64,000 nt of DNA from Chiloscyllium plagiosum (lineage: Eukaryota), in NCBI RefSeq assembly GCF_004010195.1, contig NC_057726.1, positions 69,947,468-70,011,467 on the forward strand. Reading direction: 5' to 3'. The notes beneath the pieces are model-generated. The model was not told the origin of the DNA and made no database searches. It worked only from the letters and a program-made list of their open reading frames with translations. This document shows positions 17,705-64,000 of the stretch, in pieces. How positions within the stretch are numbered: the stretch's first letter is position 1; every line of letters begins with the position of its first letter. The translations under genes and the position numbers were made by a program.

Positions 17705-17743
17705 TCTGACGTTTACTTCAAAATCTCGAGCACTTTTTACAAG

Positions 17744-17842
17744 GGGGTTCGAATGTGTTTAGTGTTATATGGAGTTCTACTAAGACCAGACTTTCATTGC
17801 AGTAAGCAAGTCCGAGTAGAACTTCGTAAGGTCATGTCCGAC
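17744..17842 (+). pseudogene. Gene A: candidate ITIM exon
   Basis: After the acceptor tttttacaag come 33 codons, GVRMCLVLYGVL...; same length and same G1/Y9/L12 register as gene B exon 38507-38605. No intact donor at the equivalent position. Confidence 0.35.
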
Positions 17843-18270
17843 TGAGAGAACGCGGAATGCAGCAACTGAATAAAAACCGAGAGAACCGACAATGCTGTCA
17901 ATCAGAAACAAAACCAGAAGTTGCTGGAAAGGTTCAGCATATCAGGCAGCATCTGCGGAGAGAAATCAGAGTTAACATTTTGGGTCGAGTGACCCTTCCT
18001 CAGAATGCAGCAACTGAAGTTAATTCAATTTTATTCTGGTTAAAAAAAGGAGCAAATATGGCACTGCAGAGCACAGGCAAAGGTACAGCGCACACCAATC
18101 ATTAATTCAATAGTGGAACAGGCTTGAGGGGCAAATGTTCTTGCTTCCTCGTGCTCGTGAATGGCATTTTAATTTAAATATGTTTTTCTTTTTAAAAATA
18201 GCCCTTGATACGATATGGCACACGGAGAAAAGCAATGAACTGACAGTATTCTCAATCCTTAACTTCATAC

Positions 18271-18459
18271 ATGGAACAATCGGACACTGACGATGAATTA
18301 ACGTCCGCCAGTCTCGATTTGAACGGCACCAGCAAAGTAAGAAACCCGAACATAAACGCCAAGGATCCAGAGTGTGCCGAGCTAAAAGTAGCAGCACCAA
18401 CCGGAGCAACTGAGGCCGTCTGCGGAGAAACCAGCATCTCAGAATGTTGCTCATCTTAG
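18271..18459 (+). pseudogene. Gene A: terminal cytoplasmic exon with signalling tyrosines replaced
   Basis: Aligns without gaps to gene B's last exon: LTSASLDL vs MTYAALDF and KDPECAEL vs KDTEYAQV, 11/40 identities by hand. The upstream intron shares aatgaac...tattctcaa with 38786-38806. The acceptor reads catac instead of catag. Confidence 0.7.
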
Positions 18460-21400
18460 AGGCAGCATTTTAGCGATGTGCATCGATTTCATTTCTTTCT
18501 CGAGTGTGATGCGTCCAGGTCTTAAGAACATCGCATCTTCAGTGATGTTCCTTTCCTGTTACTTCACAAAGAACTGCTGACCAATTGTTCATATTCAATC
18601 GCAAGTTAGGATGACTGTCGGTTTGTGAAAGTGTTTATTAATTAATAAACAATGCTCTTGCTCTACTCTGTTTAAGGCTAATTTCCGCTGCGTTTCTGTT
18701 TAAGGGCGATGATAATGAACACTGAATTAATGGGAGAGTTGCATTTTAGTTCATTTTCCTTACCTAAATTAATCGACGTTTTGTTCTTACCCATTACAAT
18801 TTCTTTCTCGAGTGTGATGCGTCCAGATCTTAAGAACCTCGCGTCTTCAGTGATGTCCCACTGTCTCTGAATATTACATGTGAATATCCCCTTGTTCTCG
18901 AATTTCAAATCGACTTATCTCTAATGTGAACACGTTTTTCTTAATGAACTGCGAATGGTTATGCAGTCATGATGATGTGCCAACATTCTGGAGCTGGTGA
19001 ATTTGTTTTAATCATCTCTTGCAAAGAATTACATTGCATTTTGTAAATTGAACAACCCCCTTTTGAGGAATAGTTGTGGGAAAATTGTTAGCAGTCGCAT
19101 AATTGATCAGAAAAAATGCCAGTCGTCCTGCATGTGTGTTAATCGATCTTCATATCCTGCATTATTTCACTGTAGCAATTCACTGGAGTAATTCACTTTG
19201 TTCTGAGCTAAACTAGTTCAGTATAACCACTAGCGCGAGGCACAAGTCGACTAATATCAGTCCGCCGTCCTGTCAAGATCTTTTTTTGGGGGATATTCAG
19301 TTTAAAACAAAAACACGATGGTGTACAAAAAAAAAATAAAAAAGAACTTACAGTAAGGTCTACCAGGTTTGAGAACTGTCTGCGAAAATGTTATTCCCTC
19401 ACTGTGGAATTCTTTGTTCAGGCCTTGAAATGTATGGACTTCAGTATATTCCGAAAATCTGTGTTCGAAATGTGTTTTACTGATTTTCCAGTTTTTATTA
19501 GTCGCATTTAGTTGTTGATGACAAAAGAACCGTGGTATTTCTAACGTCGGGAGTACCCACACAGCTATTGAGTGTGAAAGAACGGCTGGTCAGATTAGGC
19601 ACTTGGCAAATACAAGTGAACATTTTAATTAACTCTGTAGTGCTGGCATGAGGAAAGAAATATCATTTTCAGCAAATTATCCGGTTTTGTCAAATAAAGA
19701 CTGAGTGCCTACTGTGAGCAAACATGCTATTTTCAAAGTTATGGCAATATCTTACGGATCTCTTACGGATAATGAAGGCCCCAATAAATGCTGGAAGTCA
19801 CAATTGCCAATGTCAATTCTCGGGTGACAGGACATGCAATTTCAAACGTTCGCCTGTAACGGACATGTCTGATCTGGATTCCTGCCTCAGAGCAGCTGAG
19901 ACAATTATCAGCTTCGGCAGTTCAGCCAGACGTCTGTAGATTGTGGTTTATAAAATGCTTCATTGTTTGCTATGCTTTTTTTTATCCCCAAATGGAAATA
20001 AAGATTATTTTTAATTTCAAGGTCTAGGATATATTCGCGTCAGTCATTAAATTGCATCCGCTGATGTCCACTTGTCAAATTTAATTGCAACAAATTTAAA
20101 TAAATAACATTTATTTCTCTCTCGTCATTCGAAAATGCATGCCAGTCTTAAAAATATTCTTACATCTTTCTTTCTAAAGTAGGTGTTATTGCAATAGCTT
20201 GCTTTGGTTTCGTTTTTTGCCATTCCGAAGGCAATATTAGGTGAAGCAATTTAAACATTTGCACATAAACCGTAAGATGCTATCAATCTATTCCATAGAT
20301 CAAATGTTTGAGATTGAACAGCGCGGTTGGCTGTTAACATAACTGACCGTGGCTAGCCGAGATAAAGTGGTGGAACATTTTGTGGTTTAACATTGAGTGC
20401 ATCATTGCCTTAAATACATACTGGCTCATTACGATTCAAGTCAGAGTTGTTCCATTTTCTCTATCTAATGTAAGATCAAAACGAATTAAACTTCGCACCT
20501 CCAGTATGTCACAGCAGGAACTCAGCGATCCAACCTGTGCAGTTATTTTTTATCGAAATGTAACGGCACTTGCGAGATGCATGTTCAGATATGAGGTGCA
20601 AACATAAAAAATATAATGCACAGCCCCGTCCTGATGCCCCTGCCACACTGTTTGACTTAAAATTAATATTCTAAAATTGTCCTTGATAGAGCATCATGGA
20701 GTTCCTCTTGGATGGAAATTGTTTTATTACATGAAATAATGGAGTACAGACGGCCATTTTGATAGCGCTGCGCATCGCTGTGTACTTACTGACATACAAG
20801 CTTAGTTGTTCATTTTAGAGATGTATAATCATTCATGAAATCAAAACTGTATATTCTAGTACTTTTCACCATTGGAAGTTAGCCACAAACGCAAGGAAGG
20901 CAAGAGTTTGCACGAAGAACAACTGAACCAGTGGAATATAGACGGAGCAAAATATACTTTGATGTTAATTTCTTTTTGTCCAGTTAACTCCGTCCTTTAT
21001 TTCGGTACTGGTTATCTGAAAGGGCGGTGCTACTAAGTGCTGAATTCTCAATAATTCTATTTGAATTTCCTTTGTAAGCTGGTATAACCATTGCCACAAA
21101 TGATAGATGCCCATGTGGTTGGTCTGGGAGTCAGGCTTATTTTTTTATTGCCTCTTGACTTCTCTAATAGTTTTCTGAAGGTCATAGCTGGATTTTCCCT
21201 ATAGCCCAGAACTGACCGACTTGTACTGTTCGGACCTGGACTTCAGTATGTAGTGGATCTCCTGGTTCATCCATGATTTCCGGTTCGGAGACCCTCCATA
21301 TCACTAATGAAAAACAGAAAAGTAAGTAGGTTATATTTAGTACACATGGTATTAGTGATGTAATATCTGGCATCATGTGTACAATAGTGCTCTTGTTACT

Positions 21401-22378
21401 TAAGGAAAGATGTAAAGGCTTTGAGACCAGGCCAGAGATGTTTACCTGAATAATATTTCGAAGAAAACCATTGATTTATAAGGATTGGTTGGAGAGAATA
21501 AGTTTAAGCTTCGGAAGAATAAGTCAAATTGACTGAAACATGCAGAATCCAAAGTGGGTCTTGGCAAGGTGCATGTTACCAGAATATTTGCAATCGAGGG
21601 AGATTGCAGAATTAATGGCAGTTGTATAAATGCCATAGTCCTCAGTGTAACACATCGTTGAGGAAAACATCTTATTCTCACACCAAAAAATCAATATCTT
21701 TGCATCGCATCACACTTCCTCGAAGGGCGGGGTAGCAGAATATTTGTTCTTTTTAAAAATGCAACCTAGATAGATGTTTGTCAATCGTGGGGTGGGTGTG
21801 TGGGGTGTGGGGTTTCGCGGTTGGAAATTCACTTACGGTCTTAAAATGCATCGTAGCTTGGCTCAGTTAGGAATATTAAATGCGATTATTTGAAAGAACA
21901 CACTGATGTTTGTGCTGCTCATACAGTCCACACATCCCCAACAGAGGGAAAGACTGGCTTGAATGATCAGCTCGAGCCGTACACAGCAAATGGCTAACTG
22001 TTGCACTGAACTTTAGCAAAATGAACAAGAAAGAGTCATGTTCCTGATCAATGAACCGGATGTTACACTGCACTCTGACACTGTCTATCCAATGTCACTT
22101 TCAAGTTCTTGCAAACTATCAGCCAGTTCACGCTCTGTCTCTCCGGCAAATAGATCAACATGTTCCTGAGTATTGCACTTTTCTGTCTCTTTATTCAGAC
22201 AACAATTTTCCCAGGTATTCTCTCTCTTTCTACAGTACATTGCCTTTCCATAAAGTCGACCTGTTATTTAATCTTATTTAATATATTGTGTACAATTCAC
22301 TTTTGGACAGGTTAAGTCAATTAATGAACTCCACTCATTTAATCTTGCTAGTCTGTTTGTAAATGTCTTTTTCTGTAG

Positions 22379-22699
22379 GTTCTGGGGAAACCTTGGATAA
22401 AGTGACCCAGATACCAGGGAACATGACTAAAACAGTGGGTGAAAATGTGTCCTTCCATTGCTCAATTCCTTTATTTCAAGTCGGCCCAGCTGTCAACGTA
22501 ACCTGGTGGAAGCAAGGTGATCCTCATTCTCTCAATGCAGAACAAGATGACCGAAAAGTAATTGGCCTCCAGACTAAATTCAGTGGATTCCTTCAGATAA
22601 TCAATGTCAGTGTACAGGACAGAGGAATGTACTATTGCACAATCGTCCAACAAGGCAAATTATTTGGAAACGGAAAAGGGTCCAATTTAACAGTGTTGG
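22379..22699 (+). CDS. Gene B exon: Ig V-set domain with germline-joined J-like G strand
   Basis: ttctgtag| and |gtatgt splice sites, phase 1-1, 321 nt open. VTQ, FHC (B-strand Cys), VTWW, LQI, DRGMYYC, then FGNGKGSNLTVL. Five N-X-S/T sequons. Confidence 0.93.
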
Positions 22700-23514
22700 G
22701 TATGTATGAAAGCAAAATTTAAGCAATAGAGACAAGTAATATTTCACATTTGAAATAATTCTCGGGTGTGCTTGGGAAAGTTCACATTACAGGATTTATT
22801 AAAATGTATTTGATGTTATATGTCTTCAATGGCAAGTTAACATTTTTGTCCAACCCTAATTATCCTTGAACGGAGTCAATTCTTGATCAATTGGGAGAAT
22901 TGTTGAGAGTCAGCAACGTTGCTGTATGTTTTGAGTGATATAGTGTCCAAGCAGGTCCGAATGGCAGGTGGTGTGCGTGTGCTCCTTGGAGACATCTCCA
23001 TAGTTCCTGATACATGCCCACATTTAAGTTGCATCGCTGACTGCTGTACTTCATGTTCAGTATTTCAATAGTTTAGAATGATGTATCAGCAGTTGTACCT
23101 GAATTATACAGCCGTGGGACATAAACAGGAATCTCATGTACTATTGCAATATGATGAAAAGATACATGCTCTGATCAAGGGTCATCCCAAACGTTAACTT
23201 GCTTTCTCTCCATGGATGCTGCCTGACTGGCTGTGATCGCCAGCATTTGTTGCTTTCAGTACAGATTCCAGTATCTGAAGTAATTTGCTCCGACATTTCA
23301 ATGATATTGGTTAAGAGCAATAGCCCATTGCAAGCGACACAGATTTAATTATTTATTTTTAACATCTTCTTCACTCAAAGTTGACAGTTGAGAAAAAGGT
23401 TCCCTGGTGCATAAGATTTAACCCTGGTTTTTCACTGCCAGACCTGTTGAGTTTCTCCAGCAATTTCTGTTTATTTTTGTTGATGACGTTTCTTGACTGG
23501 CTTATTTTTAAGTG

Positions 23515-23812
23515 AAAGTGAGGATTGGATATGCTGGAGGCTAGAATCCAGAGTGTGGATTCTGGAAAAGCACAGCAGGTCAGGCAGCATCCGAGGAGCA
23601 GGAGAGTGGAAAAGCACAGCAGGCCAGGCAGTATCCGAGGAGCAGGAGACTGGAAAACCACAGCAGGACCGACAGTATCCGAGGGGCAGGAGACTGGAAA
23701 ATCACAGCAGGTCAGGCAACATTCTTGATGAAGGGCTTTTGCCTGAAACGTCGATTTTCGTGCTCCTCGGATGCTGCCTGACCTGCTCTGCTTTTCCATC
23801 ACCACACTCCGG
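23515..23812. repeat. Penelope pLTR-derived insert with about 4 x 44-bp tandem units and an inverted arm
   Basis: Units tggaaaagcacagcaggtcaggcagcatccgagg.gcaggagac followed by a degenerate hammerhead core and a reverse-complement arm. Confidence 0.8.
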
Positions 23813-24356
23813 GCTCATTTTATGCCGGTGTGATTTTAACAGGTAAATATTAAAATGTTGAAAGCTGATATTGCTAAAACCTAAGAACTGCTGGAGCAAC
23901 CGCCCAGGACACTCCATATGTTTTTGCTTTGCAATAAGTAAGTCACTACGTTGACTTGCGTGTCTGTTATGAATCAGTTATTTTTCCCCTCTGTCCCCTC
24001 TACATAACTGTCGTTTTCACCGTTGCTTTGTTGAACCACCGGCGATAGCAAATCATGAATCCAATTCCAGAGCCTATCGATAGTTATTTCCAGCTGAAAA
24101 ACTGAGATCTGTAACAACAGAAGTTCACGTTTTCTTGCCCACGCTTTGTCCGGGGATGAGTTAATATTCCCGCTGATACTGCACTATGTTCGCATCTCGG
24201 CACCAACAGCGCACATTGTCCAACCCTCACCACAGTGAGCACCTCCCCCACAACTGGACAGTAACTGTCCAGCAATGGGCCGAAACAAAAGATTGGGCTG
24301 TAATCCTCGTTTGACGTGAAGGTAACTTTATTTTTTCTTCCTGTTCACTTCCCTAG

Positions 24357-24668
24357 TTCCACCGACTCCACTGAATATTCTCTCTCAGCAGCCTGGAAAT
24401 GATCCATCCGTGACTCTTGCTGTTTTATGCTCCACATCTCCCTTTTACCCGAGGGATATCAGTTTTACTTGGTACAAAGATGGCAGTAAAACTACAACAG
24501 GAATCAGTACAGTCATTCGAGCAACAGACGACAGACTACACGAAGCATACAGCTGGTTGGAAGAAACACAGGCAATCCGAGCCGGAACTGTTTATACCTG
24601 CATGGTATCCCACAGCACCCTCCAAAGTTCAGCTGCGGTCAGTCACATCGTAACGAATGGCAGCCCGG
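24357..24668 (+). CDS. Gene B exon: Ig C1-set domain
   Basis: ttccctag| and |gtaaga, phase 1-1, 312 nt open. VLC.TSPFYPRDISFTWYKDG ... YTCMVSHSTL are C1-set signatures. Confidence 0.93.
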
Positions 24669-25344
24669 GTAAGAATTCTACTGGAACCATATCATTAATA
24701 ACGCACATCAAATCTGTGATACATGGAATTATACCGCACGGAAACAGACCCTTAGGTCCAACCAGTCCATGCCAAACCTCATCCCAAACTAAACTTGTTC
24801 CACCCGCCTGCTCCTGGTCCGTAATCCTGGCAAACCTTTCCCATATATGTACTTACCTAAATGTGTTTTAAACCATGTAATTGTCCCCATATCCATCACT
24901 TCCTCAGGAAGTTCATTCCACATGCAAACCGAACTCTGTGTAAAAACATTGGCCCTCATGCCTTTTTAGAAGGTCTCTCCTCTCACCTTAAACATGTGTC
25001 CCTAGTCTTGAAATTACCCATCCTAGGGAAAAGACAATGACCCTTCACCGTATCTGTACCCCTCATTATTTTATAAACTTGTATTGGGTCACCTCTCAAC
25101 CTCCTAATCTCCAGGGAAACAAGTCCCAACCTTGTATGTTTTACTTGCTAGAACCATGTAGTGTGCTCTTTATAATCATAAATGTGTTCTATTCAAGAAA
25201 ATATTCAATATTTTTGTTGACATTTTCCAGGCAAATTCTTTGAATTTGCACAGAAAATTAGAATTCACCTGGAGAAGATTACGTTTATTTTCTCTTTCTT
25301 GAAAATATCATAAATATATACTTTTTTGCAACAATAGCTAGGAC

Positions 25345-29280: not shown

Positions 29281-30249
29281 GTTCAGTGTAATTGTCTGCA
29301 GAGTGATACACTGTATCTTATCTGAAAAATATAACATCACTGGAACTGAACCATTGACTCTGCTTTTTCTCCACAGATGACGCCAGACCTTCTGAGTTTT
29401 TCTAACAATTTCTGTTATTGTTCCTGATTTCCAGCATCTAAAGTTCTTTGAGGATTTTGTTAAACCTTAGATTCTTACAATGGCGCCTTCAAAGATAGCT
29501 GAATATGCACCTTGACGTTCTACCATATCTGCCTCAGAATAAAACTATTTAGAATATCCTGCCTCTCCTAGCTGTTTTGACAAAATGTACAATCAATTTA
29601 TAATTACAAATATAAGTTTCTGCCAATTTGAAATGCTTACCTGTATGGTTTAACATCAGCTCCTGTGTTCAGCACTGCATACTAGCTGATCATCAGAAAA
29701 CATTCTGTCATCCATGAATCACACAATTTCACTCCAGCTATTCAAGACACAGTAATTTGCAAAGTCATTAAGTGAAGATTTGTCATCAATGTGATTCCAG
29801 GAGGACCTGATTTAAAGTTGACATTTATAAACACATTGCTAAATTAGGGTCAGTTAGAGCAGAGGTACTGGTTCCAGTTTTGGCCACAATGGATGCACTG
29901 AGATAGTAGGTTTTTCATAAAACATCTAAAAAGATTCTTGCATATTGTTTAGGGAACAGTCCACATTGGAAACATGGACATTGAGGTTATGATGAATCAT
30001 AAATTGCGGTGATTAAACTTATCTTCCATGCAGTCATTCTTAGTTCTACAAATGCAATTGAAGACAATTGCAGTTCTGATGGCACTCTTAAAATGAATGG
30101 AATTGGCATTCATCATTCAAACATTTGATCCCATGTAAGGGTCCCATACAGGGAGAGGCTAAATAGACTGGGCCTGTCGGTCCTAGAGCTTCAGAAGTTG
30201 AGGGGTGACGTAAAAGATGGTTATAAGAAAATGATCAACTAGCATTTTA

Positions 30250-33314: not shown

Positions 33315-33425
33315 ACTGTGTGTCCACAAAGTATTTGATGATTTCTGCAACTGTATCAGCTGGATTGATATTATTGGTGCTCAGCCTCATCATGGTGAAG
33401 CGATACACAGCAAACAAAAATATGG
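33315..33425 (+). CDS. Gene B exon: connecting peptide + uncharged transmembrane helix
   Basis: ttgttttag| and |gtagga, phase 1-1, 111 nt: DCVSTKYLMISATVSAGLILLVLSLIMVKRYTANKNM. In frame with the C1 exon. Confidence 0.85.
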
Positions 33426-35819: not shown

Positions 35820-35860
35820 TGAAAACCAATGATGACAAATCGAGTAATGATGAACACAAG
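35820..35860 (+). CDS. Gene B exon: cytoplasmic micro-exon with GC donor
   Basis: Pyrimidine-rich acceptor ending gattag|. 41 nt, phase 1-0, VKTNDDKSSNDEHK. Donor AAG|gcaagt is the GC-AG consensus. Supplies exactly the phase change needed between the TM and ITIM exons. Confidence 0.7.
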
Positions 35861-36351
35861 GCAAGTTTTTTTTACACAAAATATAACTGTATATAACTAA
35901 TTCGCATTTAGTGCAATAGCTATGTTTTATTTTGCTGCTTTAATTATTTATGCAAAATAACACAGGTTGTACTCAGTGACATAGGATTAAAACAAAAACA
36001 TCAGTAGGTCAGATGGTGTCTACTGTAGCTGTAATATTGTGATTGTGAACATACTAATTAAGAGTTTGTATAGAACAGAATGTTTGCTTTGGCTCTTAGG
36101 AAAAGAAATCACTGTGATATGCTTAGTTTGTATGTAGCATTGTCCAAAACACAGACATTGACTTTTATCCTCCACCTGACACTTACTTACAAGCCCAACT
36201 TTACCAGTCAAGCAGGAATTGACAATGATAGTTACCATTATCAGTGATGTCTCCAGATGCAGAATTAATAGAACGTTTTTCTGAATGTTGCATTTTGACG
36301 ATGGCAGTTTTGTTATTTTTTGATGCACCCTTGTTTTAAAAAATTCTCAAG

Positions 36352-37217
36352 GTCAGGTTCGTAGGAGAGTAGTCTGACACAGAACAAACGACCAAGAGGC
36401 GAGTCTGCTAGAATATGAGCATTTTATTCCCCGCAGCGTCGCCACAACCAGGTCTCATCTCAAACGGGTCTGGCTTATACTCACTCTACATGTTACCGGA
36501 ACTGGGAGCCGTCAGTTCTCGTAGAGCGGTTGCCAACAACCCACGCTCGGCGGTTAACCGTAACCCCGGAGCAGACTCCCGGGTCTGGCTTATACTCACT
36601 CTACATGTTACCGGAACTGGGAGCCGTCAGTTCTCGTAGAGCGGTTGCCAACAACCCACGCTCGGCGGTTAACCGTAACCCCGGAGCAGACTCCCGGGTC
36701 TGGCTTATACTCACTCTACATGTTACCGGAACTGGGAGCCGTCAGTTCTCGTAGAGCGGTTGCCAACAACCCACGCTCGGCGGTTAACCGTAACCCCGGA
36801 GCAGACTCCCGGGTCTGGCTTATACTCACTCTACATGTTACCGGAACTGGGAGCCGTCAGTTCTCGTAGAGCGGTTGCCAACAACCCACGCTCGGCGGTT
36901 AAACGTAACCCCGGTGCAGACTCACCGAACTGGAGACTTTTCCAGGTGATATACTCTTTTCCAGATATAAACATTCATGTGAACAGCAGAGCAAGGCTAA
37001 AAAACACATTCCATTCTGGTTACATACAGATAAGAAGATTCACACGGGGAGGTGTGTAATAAGATTCACACGGGACTAAGCAACACCTCCATTCCGGTTA
37101 GATTCACACATGTATTGGGACATAATTTTTAACCGTTTCACCACATTCCACTGCTTGGCCCAATACATGTGTTACATTATGATTCACACATGTATTGGGA
37201 CATAATTTTACACCACA
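36352..37217 (-). mobile_element. Solo LTR-like element
   Basis: The minus strand begins TGTGGTG, has repeated gattcacac motifs in a U3-like part, a TATA-like sequence near 36950-36970 and AATAAA at 36423-36428. The left terminus and TSD are not clean. Confidence 0.5.
36466..36923. repeat. 4 x 115-bp near-identical tandem repeat
   Basis: Units start at 36466, 36581, 36696 and 36811. Confidence 0.97.
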
Positions 37218-38506: not shown

Positions 38507-38605
38507 GGAACAACTGATGCGATGACACCTTATGATGCACTAAATCTGAACAATTTGCAGAAGGCACCAAGACCAAGGCATCAAGAAATGGTAGCATATG
38601 CCCAG
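38507..38605 (+). CDS. Gene B exon: first tyrosine-motif cytoplasmic exon (acceptor non-canonical)
   Basis: 99 nt, phase 0-0: GTTDAMTPYDALNLNNLQKAPRPRHQEMVAYAQ. Donor CAG|gtaggg. A strong T-tract lies upstream, but the acceptor reads ccg instead of cag. Confidence 0.65.
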
Positions 38606-38820: not shown

Positions 38821-38964
38821 ACCAGGACAAGACCTCAGGATCATAAAATGACCTATGCTGCTTTAGACTTCTCAGCCCCCAGGAAAACAGAGAAAACAAA
38901 TTATAAGGAAAAGGATACAGAGTATGCTCAGGTTCACTTGGAAAAACAAAGACAAGCTTTGTGA
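38821..38964 (+). CDS. Gene B exon: terminal cytoplasmic exon with ITIM-like MTYAAL and ITSM TEYAQV
   Basis: gttttcacag|, phase 0: TRTRPQDHKMTYAALDFSAPRKTEKTNYKEKDTEYAQVHLEKQRQAL*. Confidence 0.85.
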   Translation, partial: TRTRPQDHKMTYAALDFSAPRKTEKTNYKEKDTEYAQVHLEKQRQAL

Positions 38965-50787: not shown

Positions 50788-51510
50788 GCTGAAAATGTGT
50801 TGCTGGAAATGCGCAGCAGGTCAGGCAGCATCCAGGGAACAGGAGAATCGACATTTTGGGCATTAGCCCTTCTTCAGGAATGAGGAAAGTGTGTCCAGCA
50901 GGCTAAGATAAAAGGTAGGGAGGAGGGACTTGGGGGAGGTGCGTTGGAAATGCGATAGGTGGTTTGGAGTAAGTTGAGGGTGATAGGCCGGAGTGGGGTG
51001 GGGGCGGAGAGGTCAGGAAGAAGATTGCAGGTTAGGAAGGNNNNNNNNNNNNNNNNNNNNNNNNNNNNNNNNNNNNNNNNNNNNNNNNNNNNNNNNNNNN
51101 NNNNNNNNNNNNNNNNNNNNNNNNNNNNNNNNNNNNNNNNNNNNNNNNNNNNNNNNNNNNNNNNNNNNNNNNNNNNNNNNNNNNNNNNNNNNNNNNNNNN
51201 NNNNNNNNNNNNNNNNNNNNNNNNNNNNNNNNNNNNNNNNNNNNNNNNNNNNNNNNNNNNNNNNNNNNNNNNNNNNNNNNNNNNNNNNNNNNNNNNNNNN
51301 NNNNNNNNNNNNNNNNNNNNNNNNNNNNNNNNNNNNNNNNNNNNNNGATAGGGGAGGGGAGGGAAATATATCCTTGGTGGTGGGGTCAGTTTGGAGGTGG
51401 CGGAAATGATGGCGGATGATACGCTGTACATGGAGGTTGGTGGGGTGGTAGGTGAGGACCAGTGGGGTTCTGTCCTGGTGGCGGTTGGAGGGGCGGGGCT
51501 CAAGGGCGGT
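50788..51510 (-). mobile_element. Penelope-like element fragment (contains an N gap at 51041-51346)
   Basis: DRTPLVLTYHPTNL...HFRHLQTDPTT motif and a pLTR like 63390-63640. Confidence 0.85.
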
Positions 51511-51832: not shown

Positions 51833-53651
51833 GTCGGTGACACACATAGCATGATCTTTCTTTGTTACCGAGATGATGGTGGTCTTCTTGAAGCAGGTGG
51901 GAACTTCAGATCTCAGTAAGTAGAGGTTAAACATTTCTGTGTATACTCCTGCCTGCTAGTCTGCACTGGATCTGAATGCATGGTCAGGGATTCCGACAGG
52001 AGGTGGAGAAGTCAACTTTTCCAGTACAATCCTCTCTCAGGAATGGAGGTAGTGGTAGGGAGAGCTGCGGATAAACCAGATGGGGAAAGGGTTCTGGGTG
52101 GAGAGAGGGGCGGAATGATGAGTTAGTGATAGGTGAATACAGGTGGTGGATATGACCTGTTTGGTCAATGGGAGGAGTGGACCGATCGAACATCTGCTGC
52201 AGTGACTGTGGGAGCAGGTGCATCTGCGGCGGTTGCGATAGGTGACATGGTTTCAGTAACCTTCTGTTCAAAGTGACCACAGAATGCATTGAGATCATTG
52301 AGAAGGAATGTGGTGTTGCCTGCAATTCTATTTGCCTTTCCTTTGGAAGCTGGTGCAAGCCTTGACATAAACAATGGATGTCTGTGTGGTTGGTCGGGGT
52401 GTCAAGCTTAGTTTTTTATTGCCTCTTGACATCTCTGATGGCCTTCTGAAGGTCATAGTTGGATTTTCCCGATAGTCCAGAGCTGTCGGACTTGTATTGC
52501 TCTGACCTGAAACTCAATATGGAGTGTTTCTCCCGGATCATCCATGATTTCCGGTTGGGAGACCCTCCAGATCACTCATGAAAAACAGCAAAGTAAGGAG
52601 GTTATATTTAGTACACATGGCATTACTGAGTTAATATCTGGCATCATGTGTACAATAGTGCTCTTGTTAATTAAGGAAAGATGTAAAGGCTTTGACAGCC
52701 AGGACAGAGATGGTTTACCAGAATAATATTTCGAAGAGACCCATTGATTTATAAGGATTGGTTGGAAAGTCTAGGCTAAGCCTTTAGAAGAATAAGTCAA
52801 ATTGACTGAAACATATAGAATCCAAAGTGGGTCTTAGCAAGGTTCATGTTATCAGAATGTTTACAATTGGGGGAGGTTGGAGAATTAATGGCAGTTTCAT
52901 AAATGTGAAGACTCCTTCATGTAACACATCGTTGAGGAGAACATCTTATTCTCACACCAAAAGACTAATATCTTTCCATCAAATGTCCTTCAAAGGCGGG
53001 GAAGCAGAGTATTTGATTTTTTTTTCAAGTGCAAACTCGACAAAGATTTGTTCAGATTGGGGTGCTTGGGAGTTGGGGGCGGGGGGTGGAATTTTTCTGA
53101 CGGTCCTTAAATTCATCGTTGCTTCGCTCAGTTAGGAATATTAAATGTGATTCTTTGAAATAGCACACTGGTATTTGTTCTTCTCATACAGTCCACATAT
53201 CCCCTACAGAGGGAAAGACTGGCTTGAATGATCAGCTCGAGCCGTACACAGCGAATGACAAACTATTGCACTGAACTTCAGCAAAAGGAACAAAGAATCA
53301 GGTTCCAGATCAATGAACCGCATGTTACGTTGCACTATGACAGTGTCTGTCCAAGTCTTTCAAGTTCTTGCAAACTATCAGCCAGTTCATGCTCTGTCTC
53401 TCCGGCAAATACATCAACATGTTCCTGAGTATTGCACTTTTCTGTCTCTTTATTCTGACACCAATTTTTCCAGGTATTCTCTCTCTTTCTACAGTATATT
53501 GCCTTTCTGTAAAGTCGACCTGTTATTTAATATTTATTTAATATATCGTGCACTGTTCTCATTTGGACATATTAAGTCAATTACTGAACTCCACTCTTTT
53601 AACTCTTTTATATAATCTTGCTAATTTGTTTGTGAATGTCTCTTTCTGTAG

Positions 53652-53964
53652 GTTCTGGGGTAATCTTGGTCAACGTGACCCAATTTCCCGGGAGCGTGAC
53701 TGAAACTGTGGATGCAAATGTGTCCTTCCATTGCTTGATTCCTTTATTTCTAGTCGGCCACGCTGTTAAGGTGGAAGCAAGGTGATCCTCATTATCTACA
53801 CGCGGAACAAGATGACCAAAAAGTAACTGGCCACAAAAATAAATACAGTGGCTTCCTTCAGATAATCAATGTCAGTGTACAGGACAGAGGAATGCACTAT
53901 TGTACAATCGTCCAACAAGGCAAATTGATTGGAAACAGAGCAGGATCCAATTTAACAGTGTGGG
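53652..53964 (+). pseudogene. Gene C: VJ exon with 8-nt deletion (frameshift)
   Basis: Paralogue of 22379-22699, 313 vs 321 nt. Loss of cgtaacct just before the C-strand Trp gives an early TGA. YYC changed to HYC. Splice sites retained. Confidence 0.9.
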
Positions 53965-54810
53965 GTATGCATGAAAGCAAAAGGTAAGCGATTCTCGGGT
54001 GTGCTTGGAAAGGTTCACATTACAGGATTTATTAAAAATGTATTTGATATTGTATGTTCTTCAATGAGAAGTTAACATTTTTGTCCAACCGCAATTATCC
54101 TTGAACTGAGTGGTTTCCTTGGTCAGTTGGGAGAGTTGTTGAGAGTCAGCAACGTTGCTGTATGTGTTGAGTTGCATAGTGTCCAAGCAGGTCCGAATGG
54201 TAGGCAGTGTGCGTGCGCTCCTTGGAGACATCTCCACAGTTCCCGATACATGCCCACATTTAAGTTGCATTGCTGACTGCTGTACTTTATGTTCAGTGTT
54301 TCAATACGTTAGAATGATGTATCAGCAGTTGTACCTGAATTATGCAGCCGTGAGACATAAACAGGAATCTCAAGTACTATTGCAATATGAAGAAAAGATA
54401 CATGGCCTGATCAAGGGTCATCCAAATGTTTCCTTGCTTTCTCTCCGTGGGTGCTGCCTGACCCGCTGTGATCGCCAGCATTTGTTGCTTTCAGTACAGA
54501 TTCCAGTATCTGGAGTAATTTGCTCCGAAATTGCAATGATATTGGTTCAGAGCAATAGCCCGTCGCGGGCGAAACAGATTTGATCATATTTGATGATTTA
54601 TTTTTTACATCCCCTTTACTTAAAGTTTGTAGTTGAGAACAAGTTTCCCTGGTGCCCAAGTTTTAACCTTTTTCACAGTTGCTGCCAGACCTGTTGAGTT
54701 TCTCCTGCAATTTCTGTTTATTTTTGTTGATGACGTTTCTTGACGGGCTTAACTTTTTAGGCGAAAGTGAGGATTGCAGATGCTAGAGGCTAGAATCAAG
54801 AGTGTGGTGC

Positions 54811-55280
54811 TGGAAAAGCACAGCAGGTCAGGCAGCATCCGAGAGGCAGGAGACTGGAAATGTACCGCAGGTCAGGCAGTATCCGAGGAGCAGGAATCTG
54901 GAAAAGCACAGCAGGTCAGGCAGCATCCGAGGGGCAGGAGATTGGAAAAGCACAGCAGTTCAGGCAGCATCCGAGGAGCAGGAGACTAGAAAAGCACAGC
55001 ACGTCAGGCAGCATCCGAGGGGCAGGAGACTGGAAAAGCACAGCAGGTCAGGCAGTATCCGAGGAGCAGGAATCTGGAAAAGCACAGCAGGTCAGGCAGC
55101 ATCCGAAGGGCAGGAGATTGGAAAAGCACAGCACGTTAGGCATCATCCGAGGGGCAGGAGACTGGAAAAGCACAGCAAGTCAGGCAGTATCCGAGGGGCA
55201 AGAGACTGCAAAAGCACAGCAGGTCAGGCAGTATCCGAGGGGCAGGAGACTGGAAAAGCACAGCAGGTCAGGCAGAATTC
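54811..55280. repeat. About 11 x 44-bp Penelope pLTR-derived minisatellite
   Basis: Expanded orthologue of the roughly 4-unit array at about 23563-23720. Confidence 0.9.
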
Positions 55281-55907
55281 CTGATGAAGGACTTTTACCC
55301 GAAACGTCGAAGATCCGGCACCTCGATTTCTGCCTGACCTGCTCTGCTTTTCCAGGACCACACTCCGAAATCATTATTTTTTTCGGTGTGATTTTAATAG
55401 GTAAATATTAAAATTTTGAAAGCTGAAATTTCTAAAATCTAAAAACTGCTGGAGCCACCATCCTGTACATTCCACATGCTTTTGCCTTGCAATAAGTAAG
55501 TGACTACGTTGGCTTCCGTGTCAGTTATGGATCAGTTAATTTCTTCCTCTGTTGTTATATCACTTTGTGTTGAAAATATGCCGTTATCACTGCTGCCTTA
55601 TTGCACCACCGGCGATAATAAATTATGAATCCAATTCAGGAGCCTCTCGACAGAGAAAAACTGAGATCTGTAACAACAGCGGTCCACGTTTCCTTGCCAG
55701 CGCTTTGTCCGGGGATGAGTTAGTATTCCCATTGATACTGTACTATGTTCGCACCAACAGGGCGCATTGTCCAACCATCACCACCATGAGCACTTTCCCC
55801 CAGAACTGGATAGTAACTGTCCAGTAATGGGCTGAAACAAAGGTTTGGGCTGTAATCGTCTTCTGATGTTGAGGTCACTTTCTTTTTCTTCCTGTTCACT
55901 TCCCGAG

Positions 55908-56219
55908 TTCCACCGACTCCACTGAATATTCTCTCTCAGCAGCCCGGAAAAGATCCATCCGTAAGTCTTGCTGTTTTATGCTCCACATCTCCCTTTTACC
56001 CGAGGGATATCAGTTTTACTTGGAACAAAGATGGCAGTAAAACTACAATAGGAATCATTACAGTCATTCGAACAACAGACGACAGATTGTACGAAGCATC
56101 GAGCTGGTTGGAAGAAACGCAGGTAATCCGAGCCGGAAATGTTTACAGCTGCATGGTATCCCACAGCACCCTCCAAAGTTCAGCTGCGGTCAGTCACATC
56201 GTAATGAAGGACAACCCGG
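55908..56219 (+). pseudogene. Gene C: C1-set exon (open frame, weak GAG acceptor)
   Basis: 312 nt, 22 substitutions relative to gene B's C1 exon (hand count). Donor G|gtaaga. Confidence 0.88.
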
Positions 56220-57394
56220 GTAAGAATTCTACTGGAACCATATCATTAATAATGCACATCAAATCTGTGATACATATAATCATACTGCACGGAAACAGAC
56301 CCTTAATCTAACCGGTCCATGCCGAAAATAATCCCAAACTAAACTATTCCCATCCGCCAGCTCTTGTCCGTAATCCGGCCAAACTTTTCCCATTTATGTA
56401 CTAATCCAAATGTGTTTTAAACGTTGTAATAGTCCCCACATCCATAACTTCCTCAGGAAGTTCATTCCACATGCGAAGCAACTTCGTTGTAAAAATATTG
56501 CCCCCATGCCTTTTTTAAAATCTCTCTCTTCTCACCTTAAAAATGTGCGCCCCTAGTTTTGAAATCGCCCATTCTAGGGAAAATATAACGACCCTTCACC
56601 GTATCTGTACCCCTCAGTATTTTATGAACTTCTATCAGGTCACCTCTCAACCTCCTCATCTCCAGGGAAAGAAGTCCCAACCTTGTCCGCTTTAGAATCC
56701 TACTGGAACCATGTCAATAATAATGCACACTGAGACCGGGATCCAAGAACCGTTTCATTGCTGGTGCTGGGTGGTTTGGACCCTTACCGCAATTTGTTAT
56801 TAATAATTCAAGAAAATATTCAATGTCTGTTGTCCACATATTCTATGCAAACTCTTCATTTTTTCTAGAATCCGTGTGTAGAGTTTTATGGGTTTTCTCT
56901 CCTTTTTGCCCTGAGAATATTGTAAACATACGCTTTTAGACGACATATGCGGTCTTTAGATGAAGAGTTCCAGTTTGATTTTCGAGTACACTAACCTACC
57001 TCCGCTATCATATTAAAACCCGAACTTCTGCAATCTCCCTAAATCCTGAAGGCGTGCATTCATGGAAATGTTCTCTGTATCTTGCTCACGGTCTTGAGAC
57101 ATGATTGGCAAACCCTATTGGCCAGAATTAAGTTTAATACTGCAATCGTGATATTCAATCGTTTCATGTAAATCTGCTTTTATTGTTCAATATAATTGCC
57201 ACCGAGTACATCACAATAGCACCCTATCATCTTGCTGTTTTAATACTCGGCATCTCCTTTTTACCCAAGGAATATAATTTTGACTTGGTACAAAGAAAGC
57301 AGAAAAACTACACCAGAACTAAACAGTTATTCAAACAATGGACGATAGACTATACAATGCAGAGACAGCTGAATATGCATCTTGACGTTTGTTT

Positions 57395-57648
57395 GATTAG
57401 ATTAGACTACATTCTCTCCAGTGTGGAAACAGGCCCTTCGGCTCAACAAGTCCACACCGACCCTCCGAAGAGTAACCGCCCAGACCCATTTCCCTCAGAC
57501 TAATGCACCTAACACTATGGGCAATCTAGCATGGCCATTAACCTAACTTGTGCATCTTTGGACTGTGGGAGGAAACCGCAGCACCCGGAGGAAACCCACG
57601 GAGACACGGGGAGAATGTGCAAACTCCAGTCAGACAGTTGCCCGAGGT
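57395..57648 (-). mobile_element. HE1/V-SINE, 5'-truncated
   Basis: V-domain match. Confidence 0.85.
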
Positions 57649-58309
57649 TCTACCTTATTGCCTCAGAATAATGCATTTAGAATTTATTGCCTCTCCCAGT
57701 TGTTTCGCCAAAATGTGCAGTCCATCCGCAATTTGCAATCAACAGCACGTGGGTTTTATAATTTTAAGTGTCCACCTGTGTGTGGCTTTAACATCAGCTC
57801 CAGCACTCCGCACAATCGACCACTACACGGTCATCACTATATATTTTTTCATCCATGAACCTCGAAATTGACTCGCAATATTCAAGTTAAAGTCGTTTAC
57901 AAAGTAATTCAGTGAAGATTTTATCATCAGAGTCCTGAAGGACCCAATAAGAAATTACCATTTGTAAATATATTGCTCAATTTTGAGTTAAGAGTATAGT
58001 CTGTGGGTGCGCTGACTAGACAGGCTTTTCATAACACACCCAAAGAGATTGTTACGTACTTTTTAAAGCACTTTGGAACCGCGGGCACTGAAGTTGTGAT
58101 AAATTAAAAACTAGGGTGACTAAACTTATCTGTCATGCAGTCATTCTTAGATCCACAAACTCCACAGAAGACAAAATGTCAGCTACCTGAAAATGATAGA
58201 CTAACATGCTTGGTTGACATTCGTTGGTCACAAATTCGAGGCTGTGTAAAAAACAATTTCATTTATGTTCTATGTTCCTAAAATACTTTTAGATTAGAAT
58301 CAATCTAAA

Positions 58310-58690
58310 CATCATGGCATAGACAGAGACCACAGGGGGCGAACACCTTCAACATATTGTCTAGCTATCACCATTGTTAACAGCTAACCCGAGAATGCAA
58401 CTTTTTTAAAAAGGTTTCGTGATTTACACGTTAAAGAAGTGAAACTATCACTGTATTCTAACAGATGAAAGGCTTAACAGACAATCAATTTTTCAATGTA
58501 TAATTTCAGTTACATCACACTGTAAATTTTTGCTATAAATCCTGTGTGTTAGGATTGAGCCCTCCACTACCCCCGATGAAGGAGCGACGTTCCGAAAGCT
58601 AGTGTGCTTCCAATTAAACCTGTGGACGATAACCTGGTGTTGTGAGATATTTAACTTTGTACATCTCCGTCCAACACCGGCATCTCCAAA
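58310..58690 (+). mobile_element. Second Penelope-like pLTR family fragment
   Basis: gatgaaggagcgacgttccgaaagctagtg hammerhead-like core. Related copies at 58915-59440 and 60970-61710. Confidence 0.6.
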
Positions 58691-59054
58691 CAATTTTGTT
58701 TCTGTTTGCATGCCTGACAAAAACATTGAGCACCTTGAAAATACAATTAATCCAAGGAGCATTGGCGTTTGATTATTATCCCTGAATCCAAAACGATGCC
58801 CACCGTAGCATTATTAAAAATACTCATTTCTACCACCAATATCATTTCGCCAGTCCAGCCTGATCATTCACCTTTATTTCATTGACCATACGGCGTACTG
58901 CTTTATGGTGGCTTTTATGATGTGGAGGTGTCGGTGATGGACCAAGTGGACAAGTCAGAAGGTCAGAAGTCACATGACACCAGGTTACTGTCCGTCAAGT
59001 TTAATTGAAATTACAAGCTTTGGCGACCCTGCTCCTTCACAGTTTACCTGCGAA

Positions 59055-59360
59055 TTAGATTACTTACAGTGTGGAAGCAGGCCCTTCGGCCCAACAAGTC
59101 CACACCGCCCCGCCGAAGCGCAACCCACCCATACCCCTACATTTACCCCTTACCTAACACTACGGGCAATTTAGCATGGCCAATTCACCTAACCTGCACA
59201 TCTTTGGACTGTGGGAGGAAACCGGAGCACCCGGAGGAAACCCACGCAGACACGGGGAGAACGTGCAAACTCCACACAGTCAGTCGCCTGAGGCGGGAAT
59301 TGAACCCAGGTCTCTGGCGCTGTGAGGCAGCAGTGCTAACCACTGTGCCACCGTGCCGCC
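59055..59360 (-). mobile_element. Full-length HE1/V-SINE
   Basis: tRNA head with A box (TGGCACAGTGG) and B box (GGTTCAATTCC), V-domain and LINE-like tail. Inserted into a pLTR fragment. Confidence 0.92.
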
Positions 59361-60382
59361 CGCGAAGTGGCGGTGCTTCAAAAGCTTGTGATTTCAAATA
59401 AACCTGTTGGACTGTAACCTGGTGTCGTGTGACTTCAGACCTGATGGTATTTAGTTGACACAATTGTCACTTTTATCCCGATGTTCTTTTGAAAATCAAT
59501 TCTCAGCCTAACCTCCACTCTAAAGAAAGGAATATGTTTCAAATGTTCAACCAAATCGATACAGAGAAAATAAATAATAATTTTAAAAACCCTCGATAAA
59601 CAATACTTTTTAGTGGATGTATTAATTGTGCAAGGAATATACAATTACAGAATTCTTACATTCTATTTAGAACCTGCTTGTAAGCATTTTCTTATTTTTC
59701 CCATGTAAAATAAATTATTCTGGAGCAGGCATATTGGTCAAATTCATGAGGAGATATATCGAAAACAAGCAAGCAGGTATTTCATAAAAGCCAAAAGAAC
59801 TGCAGTCACTGCTTAGCAGGTCTTGCAACATCAGTCGAGAGAAATCAGAACCAAGGAAGGGTCACTGAACCCAAAACGTAAATTCTGAGGTTTCTCCACC
59901 GATGCTGCCAGACCTGCTTAGCATTTCCAGCAATTTCTGTTTTTGAAGCAAAAATTACACTTTGTGAAATCAAAACTTCCAATAATTACACGAGAAAATT
60001 GATGTTGTATGATGGCGCGATTACATTAAAGAGCCATTGTATTTTACGCTTGAGTTATATTTTACTTCGATTGATAGAAAATGGAGCAATTTCTGTGAGC
60101 AATTTGCTGAATTCATGTGGAATAGTTGTGGTGTATTCTTAAATTTCATAGTGCAATTTATTCTACTTTAATATGAGGAATACAAGCCAGAGAACACAGA
60201 TAAATGTTTAACTCTGTGAATTCCAGGTTTATATTTTCGATGTTTATGGTTTTGCAGTTAGTGACTTAAGGAACAATTTATTTCAATCTTAATATTTAAT
60301 AGTGAATTAAATGGTTTCATAGAATTTGTTCGAGCATTTTATCGATAATAGTTTAATGACTCTTCTAAATGTTCCATTTTAG

Positions 60383-60483
60383 TCCACAGGTTCATAATTC
60401 CTTCGATTCGGTGTCTTATATTATGATGCTTCATGATTCTTGTTCTGACAATTATCATTATTGACTATTTCAAAAGCCTTTAA
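60383..60483 (+). pseudogene. Gene C: Arg-containing transmembrane/terminal exon with a nonsense codon
   Basis: gttccattttag|, phase 1 (matches the C1 exon): VHRFIIPSIRCLIL*CFMILVLTIIIIDYFKSL*. Confidence 0.6.
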
Positions 60484-62469
60484 AGACAATAATTCCAGAC
60501 CACGAACTTTTATTGAAACTCACGAGTGAAAAGTTGGTATAATATGAAAATTGGATTGCCAGAAACATTGAGAATGGAGGGAGAATATCTTGGAAAATGA
60601 AAATTAAAACTTATCTTTAGCAAATTCCAGCTTGTTCAACCCTCTGCGAGGATGTAATATAGTCATTGCAGTAAATGTGTTTTTTGTTTCATTCGTTTCC
60701 TTCCAGAACCCGTTTTCGAAAGTACTTCTGACTTTCCAGATTTTTTCTCTCTCAGGTGCTCATAGATTTTCTTTCTTATAAGTTTACACAATGACATTAA
60801 TATTTGACCACTTCAAAATTTACTTGTATGCAAAAAGCCTTAAAGATTGTTTATTTTAAAACAGGTCCTTTAATTTGCAATTTTACTCAAGTTATCAAAA
60901 ATTCATAGGTTTTAAAATAGAGCTTATATTAAATTTTAACAAACAGAAAAAATGTTTGATCTTGAGGAACGATGATGTGGAGATGCTGGTGTTGGACTGG
61001 GATGAATGAAGTTTAAAATCCCACAACACCAGGTTATAGTCCAACAGGTTTATTTGGAAGTACAACCTTTCGGAACGCTGCTCCTTCTTCAGGTAGCTAA
61101 TGTGGCAAGATCTTAGGACATAGAATTTATTGTTAAAGATCAAAATGTCACACAACTGATGTGATGTATTGAGCAAACTTATATTGCTGGTAAGTCCTTA
61201 TTCACATAGAATGGGGATGCAGGTTTTGATTGATTAATATGTAAATCCCAAAACTTCTTTCATGTCACAGATCAGAGATAACTTGAGGTACATTCTAATT
61301 TGTTCGATATACACATAATCTGTAGGCAGACTGTCCATGTGATATTTTATAAATTCCTAGTATGGAAATAGAACCAGTCTGACTCAAGTTTGGGATGCAG
61401 ACAGACTCTAACCTCACATCTTTAATGGATTGTCTGACCTGAGATGTCACTTTTCATTTATAAAATCTTAAGCTATCTTAGGACTGTGACTTGAAAGAAG
61501 TTCTGGGATTTATATTTTATTCAATCGAAACCTACACCCCCATACTAAGCGATTACATCAGTTGTATGTCACTTCGATCTTTTACAATAAAATCTGTGTC
61601 CAATGATCTTGTCCAACTAGTTGCCCGACTAAGGAGCAACGCTTCGAAAGTGTGTACTTCCAAATACATTATCTTGTATGATAATGTGGTGTTGTGTGAT
61701 CTTTAAATTTGAGGAGCAATATTAATGGGCAGTATGAAAAATGAATGTAGCTGTGTATGAAATCCTGCAAATATTTTTGCATTTAACATTGTTGAGATTT
61801 TGCAATAGTCATAAAGTCATATCGTCATGAGAGCTACAGCACAGAAAAGGGGGGGCTGATAAGTGGGGGAGATGGCCTGAAGAAGGGCTCATGCCCCAAA
61901 CGTCGATTCTCCTGCTCCTTGGATGCTGCCTGACCTGCTGCGCTTTTCCAGTAAAACATTTTCAGCTCCGATCTCCAGCATCTGCAGTCCTCAGTTCTCC
62001 ATGTGGTATTATCACTTGACTTTTAAGCCAGAAACGCAGAATAATATTCTGGGCACCTCGGATCGAATCCCACCACAGCAGATGGTGGAATTTGAATTCA
62101 ATAAGAAAAGTGCCTGGAATTAAGAGTCGACTGATGACTGTGAAACCATTGTCAGGAAAAAAAAACATTTGATTCACTAATGTTCTTTAGGGAAGGAAAT
62201 GTGCCATCAACAACTGGTCTGGCCTGTATGTGGCTTTGACCTTTTACAGCAAATTCTTTGTACTATGAAACACCAGCACCTCCATATCATTGCTCCTCAA
62301 GATCAAGTATTCAAACATTTTTTTTCTGTTCATTGCTGCACTGTCTTTAATGTTAACATTTAATTTAAATTCTATTTTTAAAAACCTACGAATTTGTGAT
62401 AACTTTAATAAAATTGCAAATTTAATGACCTGTATTAAAATAAATAATCATTAAGGCTTATTGCAAAGT

Positions 62470-63388
62470 CCTCCTTACCAATATCTGGTACCCCGTGCTG
62501 AAATTTGGAGAGCTGTCTCACTGACTAGTCAACCAAGAGTCTGACATAGTCATACTCATGGAATCATACCCTACAGATAACACCCCAGATACCACCATTA
62601 TCATCGCTAACTATGTCCTGTCCTACAGACCCAGCAGAGGTGTTGGAATACTATTCGTAGGGAGTTTTCCTGGGAATCCTTGACTCAAGACCCCATTCAG
62701 TTTCATGGCTTCAGGTTAAACATGGGCGGGGAAACCTCTTACTGGTTACCACGTATGGTCCTCCTTTGGCTGACGAATCAGTACTCCTCCATATTGAACA
62801 ACACTTGGGGGAAGCACTGAGGGTGGCAAGGGCGCAAAATGTACTCTGGGTGGGGGAAGTCAATGTCCACCACAAAGAGTGGTATGGCAGCAGCATTACT
62901 GATCAAGCTGGTCGGGCTCTAAAGGATATAATGCCGAGACTGGTTCTGCAACATTGGTGAAGGTACCAACAAGAGGAAAAAAACACACTTGTCCTCATCC
63001 TTACTGACCTGCCAGCTGCAGAATGATCTGTCCATGACAGTATAGGTAAAATTGACCAACGTACTGTCCTTGTGAAGATGAAGTCCCACCTTCACATTGA
63101 GAATAACCTCCATCATGTTACGTGACACTATCACCATGCTAAATGTGACACACTCTGAACCAATCTAGCAGCTCAAGACTGGGCATCCATGAGGCACTGT
63201 GGGCCATCAACAGCAGTGGAACTGTACTCCAGCACAATCTGCAATCTCATGGCCAGGTATATGCCTCACTCAACCATTACCATCAAGCCAGGGGATCATC
63301 CCTGGTTCAATGGATTGTACAGTAGGGCATTCCAGGAGAAGCATCATGCATACCTGAAAATGAGGTGTCAACCTGGTGAAGTTACTAA
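62470..63388 (+). mobile_element. Decayed CR1/L2-type LINE ORF2 (APE endonuclease region)
   Basis: DIVILMESY, TTYGPP, WVGEVNVHHKEW and KPGDHPWFN motifs. Confidence 0.75.
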
Positions 63389-64000
63389 ACTGAAACTTTA
63401 TTGCTGGAACAGCACAGCAGGTCAGGCAGCATCTAGGGAACAGAAGATTCGACGTTTCGGGCACATGCCCTTCTTCAGGAATGAGCAGAGAGTGTTCAGC
63501 AGGAGAAGATAAAAGGTAGGGAGGAGGGACTTGGAGGAGGGGCGTTGGAAATGTGATAGGTGGAAAGAGGTAAAGGTGAAGGTGATAGGTCGGAGTAGGG
63601 TGGAGGCGGAGAGGGCAAGAAGAAGACTGCAGGCCAGGAAGGCGGTGCCGGGCTGGAGGGATCCGGCTGAGACAAGGTGGGGGGAGGGGGGATGAAGAAA
63701 CTGGTGAAGTCCAAGTTCATCCCCTGCGGTTGGAGGGTCCCCAGTCGGAAGATAAGACGCTCCTCCTCCGACCATCGGGTTGTTGTGGTTTGGCGGTGGA
63801 TGAGTCCAATGACCTGCATATCCTCGGTGGAGTGGGAGGGGGAGTTGAAATGCTGTGCTACAGGGTGGTTGGGTTGGTTCGTCCGAGTGGCCCAGAGGTG
63901 CTCTCTGAATCGCTCCGCAAGTAGGCGGCCTGTCCCCCCAATATAGAGGAGGCCACACCGGCTGCAGCGGATGCAGTAGATGATGTGGGTGGAGGTGCAG
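63389..64000 (-). mobile_element. Penelope-like element 3' part (GIY-YIG endonuclease + pLTR with hammerhead motif at 63446-63482)
   Basis: Minus frame IIYCIRCSRCGLLYIGETGR...RFREH...PVAQHFN...EEERLIFRLGTLQPQGMN. Confidence 0.92.

Follow-up and report, generated by a model that had tools for sequence, protein, structure and literature searches.

Signal-regulatory proteins (SIRPs) have two C1 domains, and the charged residue in the transmembrane (TM) segment of SIRP-beta is a lysine. SIRP-beta uses DAP12 (PMC12975943), the origins of the SIRPs are called unknown in one review (PMC9652883), and a survey places their emergence in tetrapods (PMC13262535). The NxxR-type TM segment of tetrapods binds FcR-gamma and combines an outer Arg with an acidic C-terminal end, TM and short tail being encoded by the same exon; the passages cited here report it from amphibians, birds and mammals only (PMC6557307, PMC2413239, PMC4536121). 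Among paired receptors, activating KIR and Ly49 members are reported to arise repeatedly from inhibitory homologues (PMC2213150), and sharks possess UrIg and UrIg2, non-rearranging VJ-C1 genes in which an unsplit VJ exon is followed by C1 (PMC12227049). No description of the V-C1 receptor family and TM class of cartilaginous fish analysed here was found in titles and abstracts of a mostly non-subscription literature. Published inventories of the immune genes of the elephant shark, or of VJC1 genes, may already include these loci.

The window, the whole stretch of 64,000 nucleotides of Chiloscyllium plagiosum DNA that was analysed (all positions refer to it, and the gene features described are on its + strand), contains a cluster of V-C1 receptor genes; no flanking non-family genes were identified in it. 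Gene B, used for comparison, has a leader exon (22160-22214), a V exon (22379-22699) and a C1 exon (24357-24668) that match RefSeq XP_043563380.1 of Chiloscyllium plagiosum, as does every gene B exon found by tblastn. These are followed by an uncharged-type TM exon (33315-33425), detected by tblastn and by an uncharged-TM profile, and by tail exons at 35820-35860 (GC donor at 35861-35862), 38507-38605 and 38821-38964. The RefSeq model ends after the first tail exon, and the genome contains two further exons with Tyr motifs: exon 38507-38605, whose acceptor reads CG and not AG, and exon 38821-38964, with two Tyr motifs and the stop. The absence of any Tyr-motif exon from the RefSeq model is attributed to the CG acceptor at 38505 together with the GC donor of the first tail exon. 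If 38507-38605 were skipped and the transcript spliced directly to 38821, the reading frame would be preserved and two Tyr motifs retained, and the Heterodontus homologues P0007 and P0014 lack the segment encoded by the skipped exon. Since the RefSeq model is without the Tyr exons and one acceptor is not AG, the inhibitory status of gene B is a prediction. An AlphaFold model of gene B intended for a fold search was dropped, its mean pLDDT of 56 being too low. The intron between the tail exons also holds a 115-nt tandem repeat (36465-36923) of about four copies with 98-99% identity.

Of gene A only decayed remnants are left (16373-18390): a TM exon of the uncharged type that starts at 16373 and contains an in-frame TAG, and a tail exon (18274-18390) that has lost both motif tyrosines. 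Upstream of 16373 the window contains LINE-like pieces and an assembly gap, and no V or C1 exon of gene A was found there. Assembly gaps occur at 14373-14504, 17578-17704 and 51041-51346, the last about 1 kb upstream of the start of homology between genes B and C, and at 4304-4499 two SINE-like copies form a head-to-head 98-nt inverted repeat, 99% complementary and with no spacer.

Gene C has an open leader exon (53419-53473; 52/55 nt identical to that of gene B), a V exon with a J-like end (53652-53964) and an open C1 exon (55908-56219) that is 92.9% identical to that of gene B. Pfam recognises V-set and C1-set domains, the C1 being single. The V exon carries the 8-nt frameshifting deletion (near 53769/53770) described in the sequence-only reading, which comparison with gene B bears out. 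Further changes affect the tyrosine before the second Cys motif of V, which is His in gene C and Tyr or Phe in 59/59 family matches, the Gly of the J-like motif, which is Arg in gene C and Gly in 34/34 family matches, and the C1 acceptor, GAG where the gene B counterpart has TAG. Together with two lesions of the TM exon described below, a TGA and a Cys at a conserved Arg position, this makes about six. The earlier proposal that gene C had been inactivated twice, by the V frameshift and the TM nonsense codon, is therefore right in that the gene is dead in the assembly, but too low in its count, and the additional lesions identify gene C as a pseudogene in this assembly. Its C1 exon differs from that of gene B by 15 nonsynonymous and 5 synonymous codon differences, near the expectation for neutral drift. 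The gene C V domain shares nine residues with Hemiscyllium P0002 against gene B (two of them derived by outgroup) and 14 with gene B against P0002, and, to judge from these residues, it may be a mosaic. In the V-C1 intron of gene C (54810-55275) a 44-nt SINE-like unit is expanded to 10.6 tandem copies, with fewer at the matching place in gene B.

An activating-type TM exon, with an intramembrane Arg and a short tail, had been proposed to close gene C 4.2 kb after its C1 exon. The exon (60383-60483) lies 4,163 nt past the C1 end at 56219, and its phase-1 translation agrees letter for letter. It encodes the TM segment and a five-residue tail in one exon, follows an AG acceptor (60381-60382) with a pyrimidine tract of 12/17 upstream, and reaches a best 19-residue hydropathy of 2.92. 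Codon 10 is CGG (Arg, 60409-60411), codon 11 TGT (Cys, 60412-60414), codon 15 TGA (60424-60426) and codon 28 GAC (Asp, 60463-60465), with the terminal TAA (60481-60483) five codons past the Asp. The only donor-like GT(A/G) in 60383-60520 is at 60411, inside the coding part, and ATTAAA occurs at 60603-60608 and again at 60928, each only a candidate polyadenylation signal. Among 392 acceptor-like sites on the + strand, two precede a hydrophobic exon interrupted by no more than one stop, and these are the TM exon of gene B and exon 60383-60483; the same scan of 372 acceptor-like sites on the - strand yielded one marginal case. Since the scan missed the decayed TM exon of gene A, its sensitivity is incomplete.

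As had been stated from the sequence alone, the exon has no similarity to the gene B TM (DNA score 20 versus a shuffle mean of 24.5), and a DNA alignment of its region with the TM region of gene A was no better than shuffles. Nor do Tyr-motif exons follow it, as also claimed: tblastn with 40 homologues recovers the tail exons of gene B and none in 56220-64000, where the raw frames contain seven loose Tyr-motif matches devoid of tblastn support, the window ending 3.5 kb past the TM exon. The exon itself was touched only once by these 40 homologues (E 0.92), Pfam and PDB searches with the exon alone gave no match, and a direct but weak search for an intact close orthologue (the exon plus 11 upstream codons, with TGA as X) returned one candidate and none at E≤10.

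The family in which the exon was placed was assembled from homologue searches that returned 9 and then 35 proteins and from a profile search that listed 150, long multi-domain proteins being dropped by a length cut. Removal of 14 isoforms or outliers, of proteins of more than 500 residues and of those without a TM left 68 TM-bearing family proteins. Nine V-C1 receptors share a TM class in which an Arg lies 17 residues before an Asp-His pair at the inner TM end and a short tail follows. They span five genera of cartilaginous fish (Callorhinchus, Heptranchias with three, Heterodontus, Scyliorhinus with two, and Chiloscyllium with C. punctatum and C. plagiosum) and include the intact members XP_067905015.1 and LOC122558644. 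The Arg is kept in 8/9 members, from chimaera to sharks, and is Gln in the other; the Asp is present in 9/9, but the members were selected on it; and the predicted tail holds a Tyr motif in 4/9. The spacing between the Arg and the acidic residue is also about 17 residues in mammalian NxxR-type receptors. The median score of one class TM against another is 55.5 and against other family TMs 25, and the best TM match of every class member is another class member, where class labels come from regular expressions applied to automatic gene models, some of them mislabelled, such as the gene B model without its Tyr exons.

Because the class was defined after its resemblance to exon 60383-60483 had been noticed, the unbiased test is an unselected ranking. 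When the post-C1 segments of all 68 proteins were scored against the exon, the top eight were all class members, the median being 41 for the class and 24 for the rest (Mann-Whitney p 8e-7, on rows that are not independent). An ungapped nine-member profile from the exon start to the Asp gave the exon 32.1 and the runner-up of 97,628 window 31-mers 17.8; none of 20,000 residue shuffles reached 32.1, and six other registers scored ≤-3.9. True class members scored 38.1-66.8 when left out of the profile, which makes the exon a degraded member of the class. Two HMMs, built from four and from nine class members, likewise put it at the top of the 6,384 six-frame pieces (14.8 bits; E 0.007 and 0.006). 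An early HMM of nine Arg-bearing TMs also placed it first, at only E 0.55, an HMM of five other Arg-bearing TMs did not pick it, and a profile of 13 uncharged TMs matched genes B and A (31.9 and 8.2 bits, respectively) but missed the exon. The sequence-only reading had left open a chance hydrophobic stretch should homologous exons be absent; with a homologous class in nine receptors of the family, the exon is real.

Two details of the original description change in the light of the class. The Arg-bearing, short-tailed TM is homologous to a conserved class, but the Arg that had been singled out (codon 10) stands one residue before the class Arg position, 17 before the Asp, which is now Cys. Class members have Pro, Ser, Val, Tyr, Leu, Phe or Thr at the codon 10 position, and TGT at codon 11 is one CpG-type transition from CGT, so that the Cys, judged from this alignment, is likely a further lesion. 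A one-codon insertion restoring the Arg register was considered less likely, as His2, Arg3, Phe4 and Ile9 upstream match P0036, P0049 and P0039 without gaps, although an Arg-Cys pair in other family members (P0022 and P0026) lends such an insertion some plausibility. The internal TGA had been described as one base from GGA or CGA. The facing position in class members is Gly in 5/9, Ser in 2/9 and Ala in 2/9, so a GGA ancestor fits, as does TCA, but CGA does not.

The relationship of genes B and C is layered. A young stratum (52324-56714) matches gene B 21053-25159 at 85-95% identity over exons and introns; it starts 1.1 kb upstream of the ATG and ends about 500 nt downstream of C1. Near 56.8 kb the binned identity drops from 84-96% to 68-77% (one mixed bin at 85%), and an older stratum (56806-58249) follows, in which two intron blocks align collinearly with gene B 25191-25325 and 29514-30138 at 72-73% identity. 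Collinearity extends to 58.2 kb; past 58249 the two genes cannot be aligned, TM included. With DNA identities of 86% in V and 93% in C1 and unalignable TMs, one cluster contains similar ectodomains with opposite types of TM and tail. Within the C1-TM intron of gene C lie the frameshifted middle part of a former C1 exon (57230-57371; 113/144 columns identical to the gene B C1) and, less clearly, what is left of a C1 acceptor with the first part of its exon (58115-58197; 53/83, score 46 versus a shuffle maximum of 33). The gene B counterpart of these old fragments (30020-30070) does not rise above shuffles. The fragments may be relics of a V-C1-C1 ancestor; two C1 domains that are nearly identical occur in one model from a skate, P0003.

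Mixing of ectodomain and TM type extends through the family. In a C1 tree (88 rows, 104 columns, no tetrapod sequences) the nine class members are scattered and need nine changes, at least seven of which are forced by well-supported branches. For 8/9 class members the nearest C1 belongs to a non-class receptor (54-94% identity), to which TM identity is 23-37%, and P0161, an intact gene model, combines a C1 that is 82% identical to that of an ITIM receptor with a TM of the Arg...Asp-His class. As the nearest C1 is non-class while the TMs differ, such mixing is usual in the family, and gene C conforms to the pattern. Exon 60383-60483 is a broken member of an old Arg...Asp-His class, and we consider it likely that it was the last exon of gene C, that gene C was a presumably activating twin of gene B, itself predicted to be inhibitory, and that the ectodomain of gene C was overwritten before the gene died. 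The gene C locus would then retain an old activating 3' end, its leader-V-C1 half having been replaced by B-lineage sequence on at least two occasions, which correspond to the strata of about 72% and 85-95%. Gene conversion or unequal crossing over could have done this, and would have kept the ligand face of gene C like that of gene B. Death would have followed through the V frameshift, the TM nonsense codon, loss of the class Arg and other drift.

The C1 remnant at 57230-57371, between the C1 and TM exons of gene C, speaks against this explanation, for it could mark a separate older gene. The exon would then be the orphaned 3' end of that activating gene, and gene C a partial duplicate of gene B that landed upstream and never was a working activating receptor. 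The second remnant at 58115-58197 and the near-neutral pattern of C1 changes in gene C favour such a history, but the intron blocks flanking the remnant are collinear with the C1-TM intron of gene B at 72-73%, as expected of one gene with layered conversion tracts, and intact models elsewhere, such as P0161, show the same combination of C1 and TM. We therefore regard an orphaned 3' end as unlikely, though it is the most serious competitor to membership of the exon in gene C.

The predicted signalling role of the class rests on its charge pattern. Only 1/19 family proteins with an outer-TM Arg have at least two tail Tyr motifs, compared with 29/49 of those without one (Fisher p 3e-5, for rows that are related and not independent, in a table of 68 automatic gene models whose Arg pattern missed one class member). 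Such near-exclusion is, at the level of predicted proteins, a paired-receptor signature of activating versus inhibitory forms. In intact class members the Arg in the outer leaflet would pair with an Asp-bearing ITAM adaptor of the FcR-gamma or CD3-zeta type, and the receptors would signal through it without a tail of their own. Expression of cd247 is recorded in bamboo-shark T cells, one SIRP-alpha-like gene marks kidney tubular cells of that shark, and neither LOC122558644 nor shark FcR-gamma is among the marker-gene rows covered here from the supplement of the same single-cell study (PMC11372145). A second route to a charged TM was also observed in rays and sharks, an Arg in otherwise inhibitory-type TMs, mostly with short tails (P0009, P0022, P0026, P0035, P0038, P0081, P0082, P0090, P0113 and P0162).

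If the exon belonged to gene C and the class were not adaptor-coupled, the Arg and Asp could serve topology or dimerisation and the receptors could be decoys or adhesion molecules. The NxxR Asn is found in only 1/9 members and Gln replaces the Arg in 1/9, as such a role would allow, but we think it improbable when the Arg is kept in 8/9 from chimaera to sharks and outer Arg and Tyr-motif tails nearly exclude each other. Slightly more improbable still is that gene C is alive in some individuals, or its lesions are assembly errors, and that it acts as an activating receptor through the shifted Arg. An Arg does remain one residue from the class position, and null alleles commonly segregate among paired activating receptors, but at least six separate lesions in three exons would have to be explained away. 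Finally, a chance hydrophobic stretch of AT-rich intergenic DNA, to which the local GC content of 35%, the lack of DNA similarity to the gene B TM and the empty Pfam and PDB searches might point, is hardly credible for a segment that leads 97,628 31-mers by a wide, register-specific margin unmatched in 20,000 shuffles and that sits on the right strand and in the right phase, behind an acceptor and downstream of a C1 exon.

A decayed exon of an activating class at the end of a dead paralogue, as preferred here, is an ordinary product of birth and death in such clusters. Its interest is that the pseudogene exposes a large family of paired V-C1 receptors in sharks, rays and chimaera, whose members bear misleading database names (SIRP-like, Ig light chain-like, tapasin-like and MHC class II-like). 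Should FcR-gamma or CD3-zeta prove to be the partner of the activating exon, a TM design for adaptor coupling known from tetrapods would reach back to the root of the jawed vertebrates, and the family would supply candidates for myeloid or NK checkpoint receptors of sharks and for the question of SIRP origins. We can go further only tentatively, to a reading we think more doubtful than probable: that the Arg...Asp-His exon is the NxxR-type, FcR-gamma-coupling TM of cartilaginous fish, inherited from the jawed-vertebrate ancestor as a portable activating end repeatedly given inhibitory VJ-C1 ectodomains, that gene C is the fossil of one such cycle of graft and death, and that this cluster perhaps corresponds, in sharks, to the SIRPs.

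The shark class resembles the NxxR-type TM of LILRA, NKp46, GPVI, Fc-alpha-R, OSCAR and Xenopus XFL TM1 in its outer Arg, acidic C-terminal end and reuse on different ectodomains (PMC6557307, PMC2413239, PMC4536121), and exon 60383-60483 itself has an outer Arg, displaced by one residue, an Asp at codon 28, and TM and tail in the same exon. However, Asn occurs three residues before the Arg in only 1/9 shark members (P0039) and is Ser in the exon, the N-terminal DYT consensus is absent from the exon and from the nine aligned class segments, and the shark class lies under a V-C1 ectodomain whereas NxxR segments lie under LRC/FcR C2 domains. Given the single Asn and the missing DYT, we propose that the shark class works like an NxxR TM and do not claim that it is one.

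With the SIRPs the genes share a V domain with a J-like end followed by C1 and a tandem arrangement of Tyr-motif-tailed and short-tailed charged-TM forms, and the genomic tail exons of gene B and its homologues carry cytoplasmic Tyr motifs, as predicted for an inhibitory member. RefSeq names many homologues SIRP-alpha-like, and when PDB was searched with the family profile three entries (an IgA1 chain, UrIg2 and a Fab chain) outscored SIRP-alpha, which came fourth. They differ in that the shark genes have one C1 and that the nine class members have an outer Arg and no TM Lys. UrIg and UrIg2 share the unsplit VJ exon followed by C1, and UrIg2 is among the top PDB matches for both the family profile and the gene C C1, but UrIg has three C1 domains and UrIg2 many, whereas the genes here combine one intact C1 with paired signalling tails. 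The overall organization is that of the KIR, LILR/PIR, CD300/MAIR, NITR and CEACAM paired receptors, with near-identical ectodomains, opposite signalling ends and decayed copies in one cluster. Compared with KIR and Ly49, the shark family shows the route from inhibitory forms (P0022 and P0026) and, in addition, an old dedicated exon of activating type.
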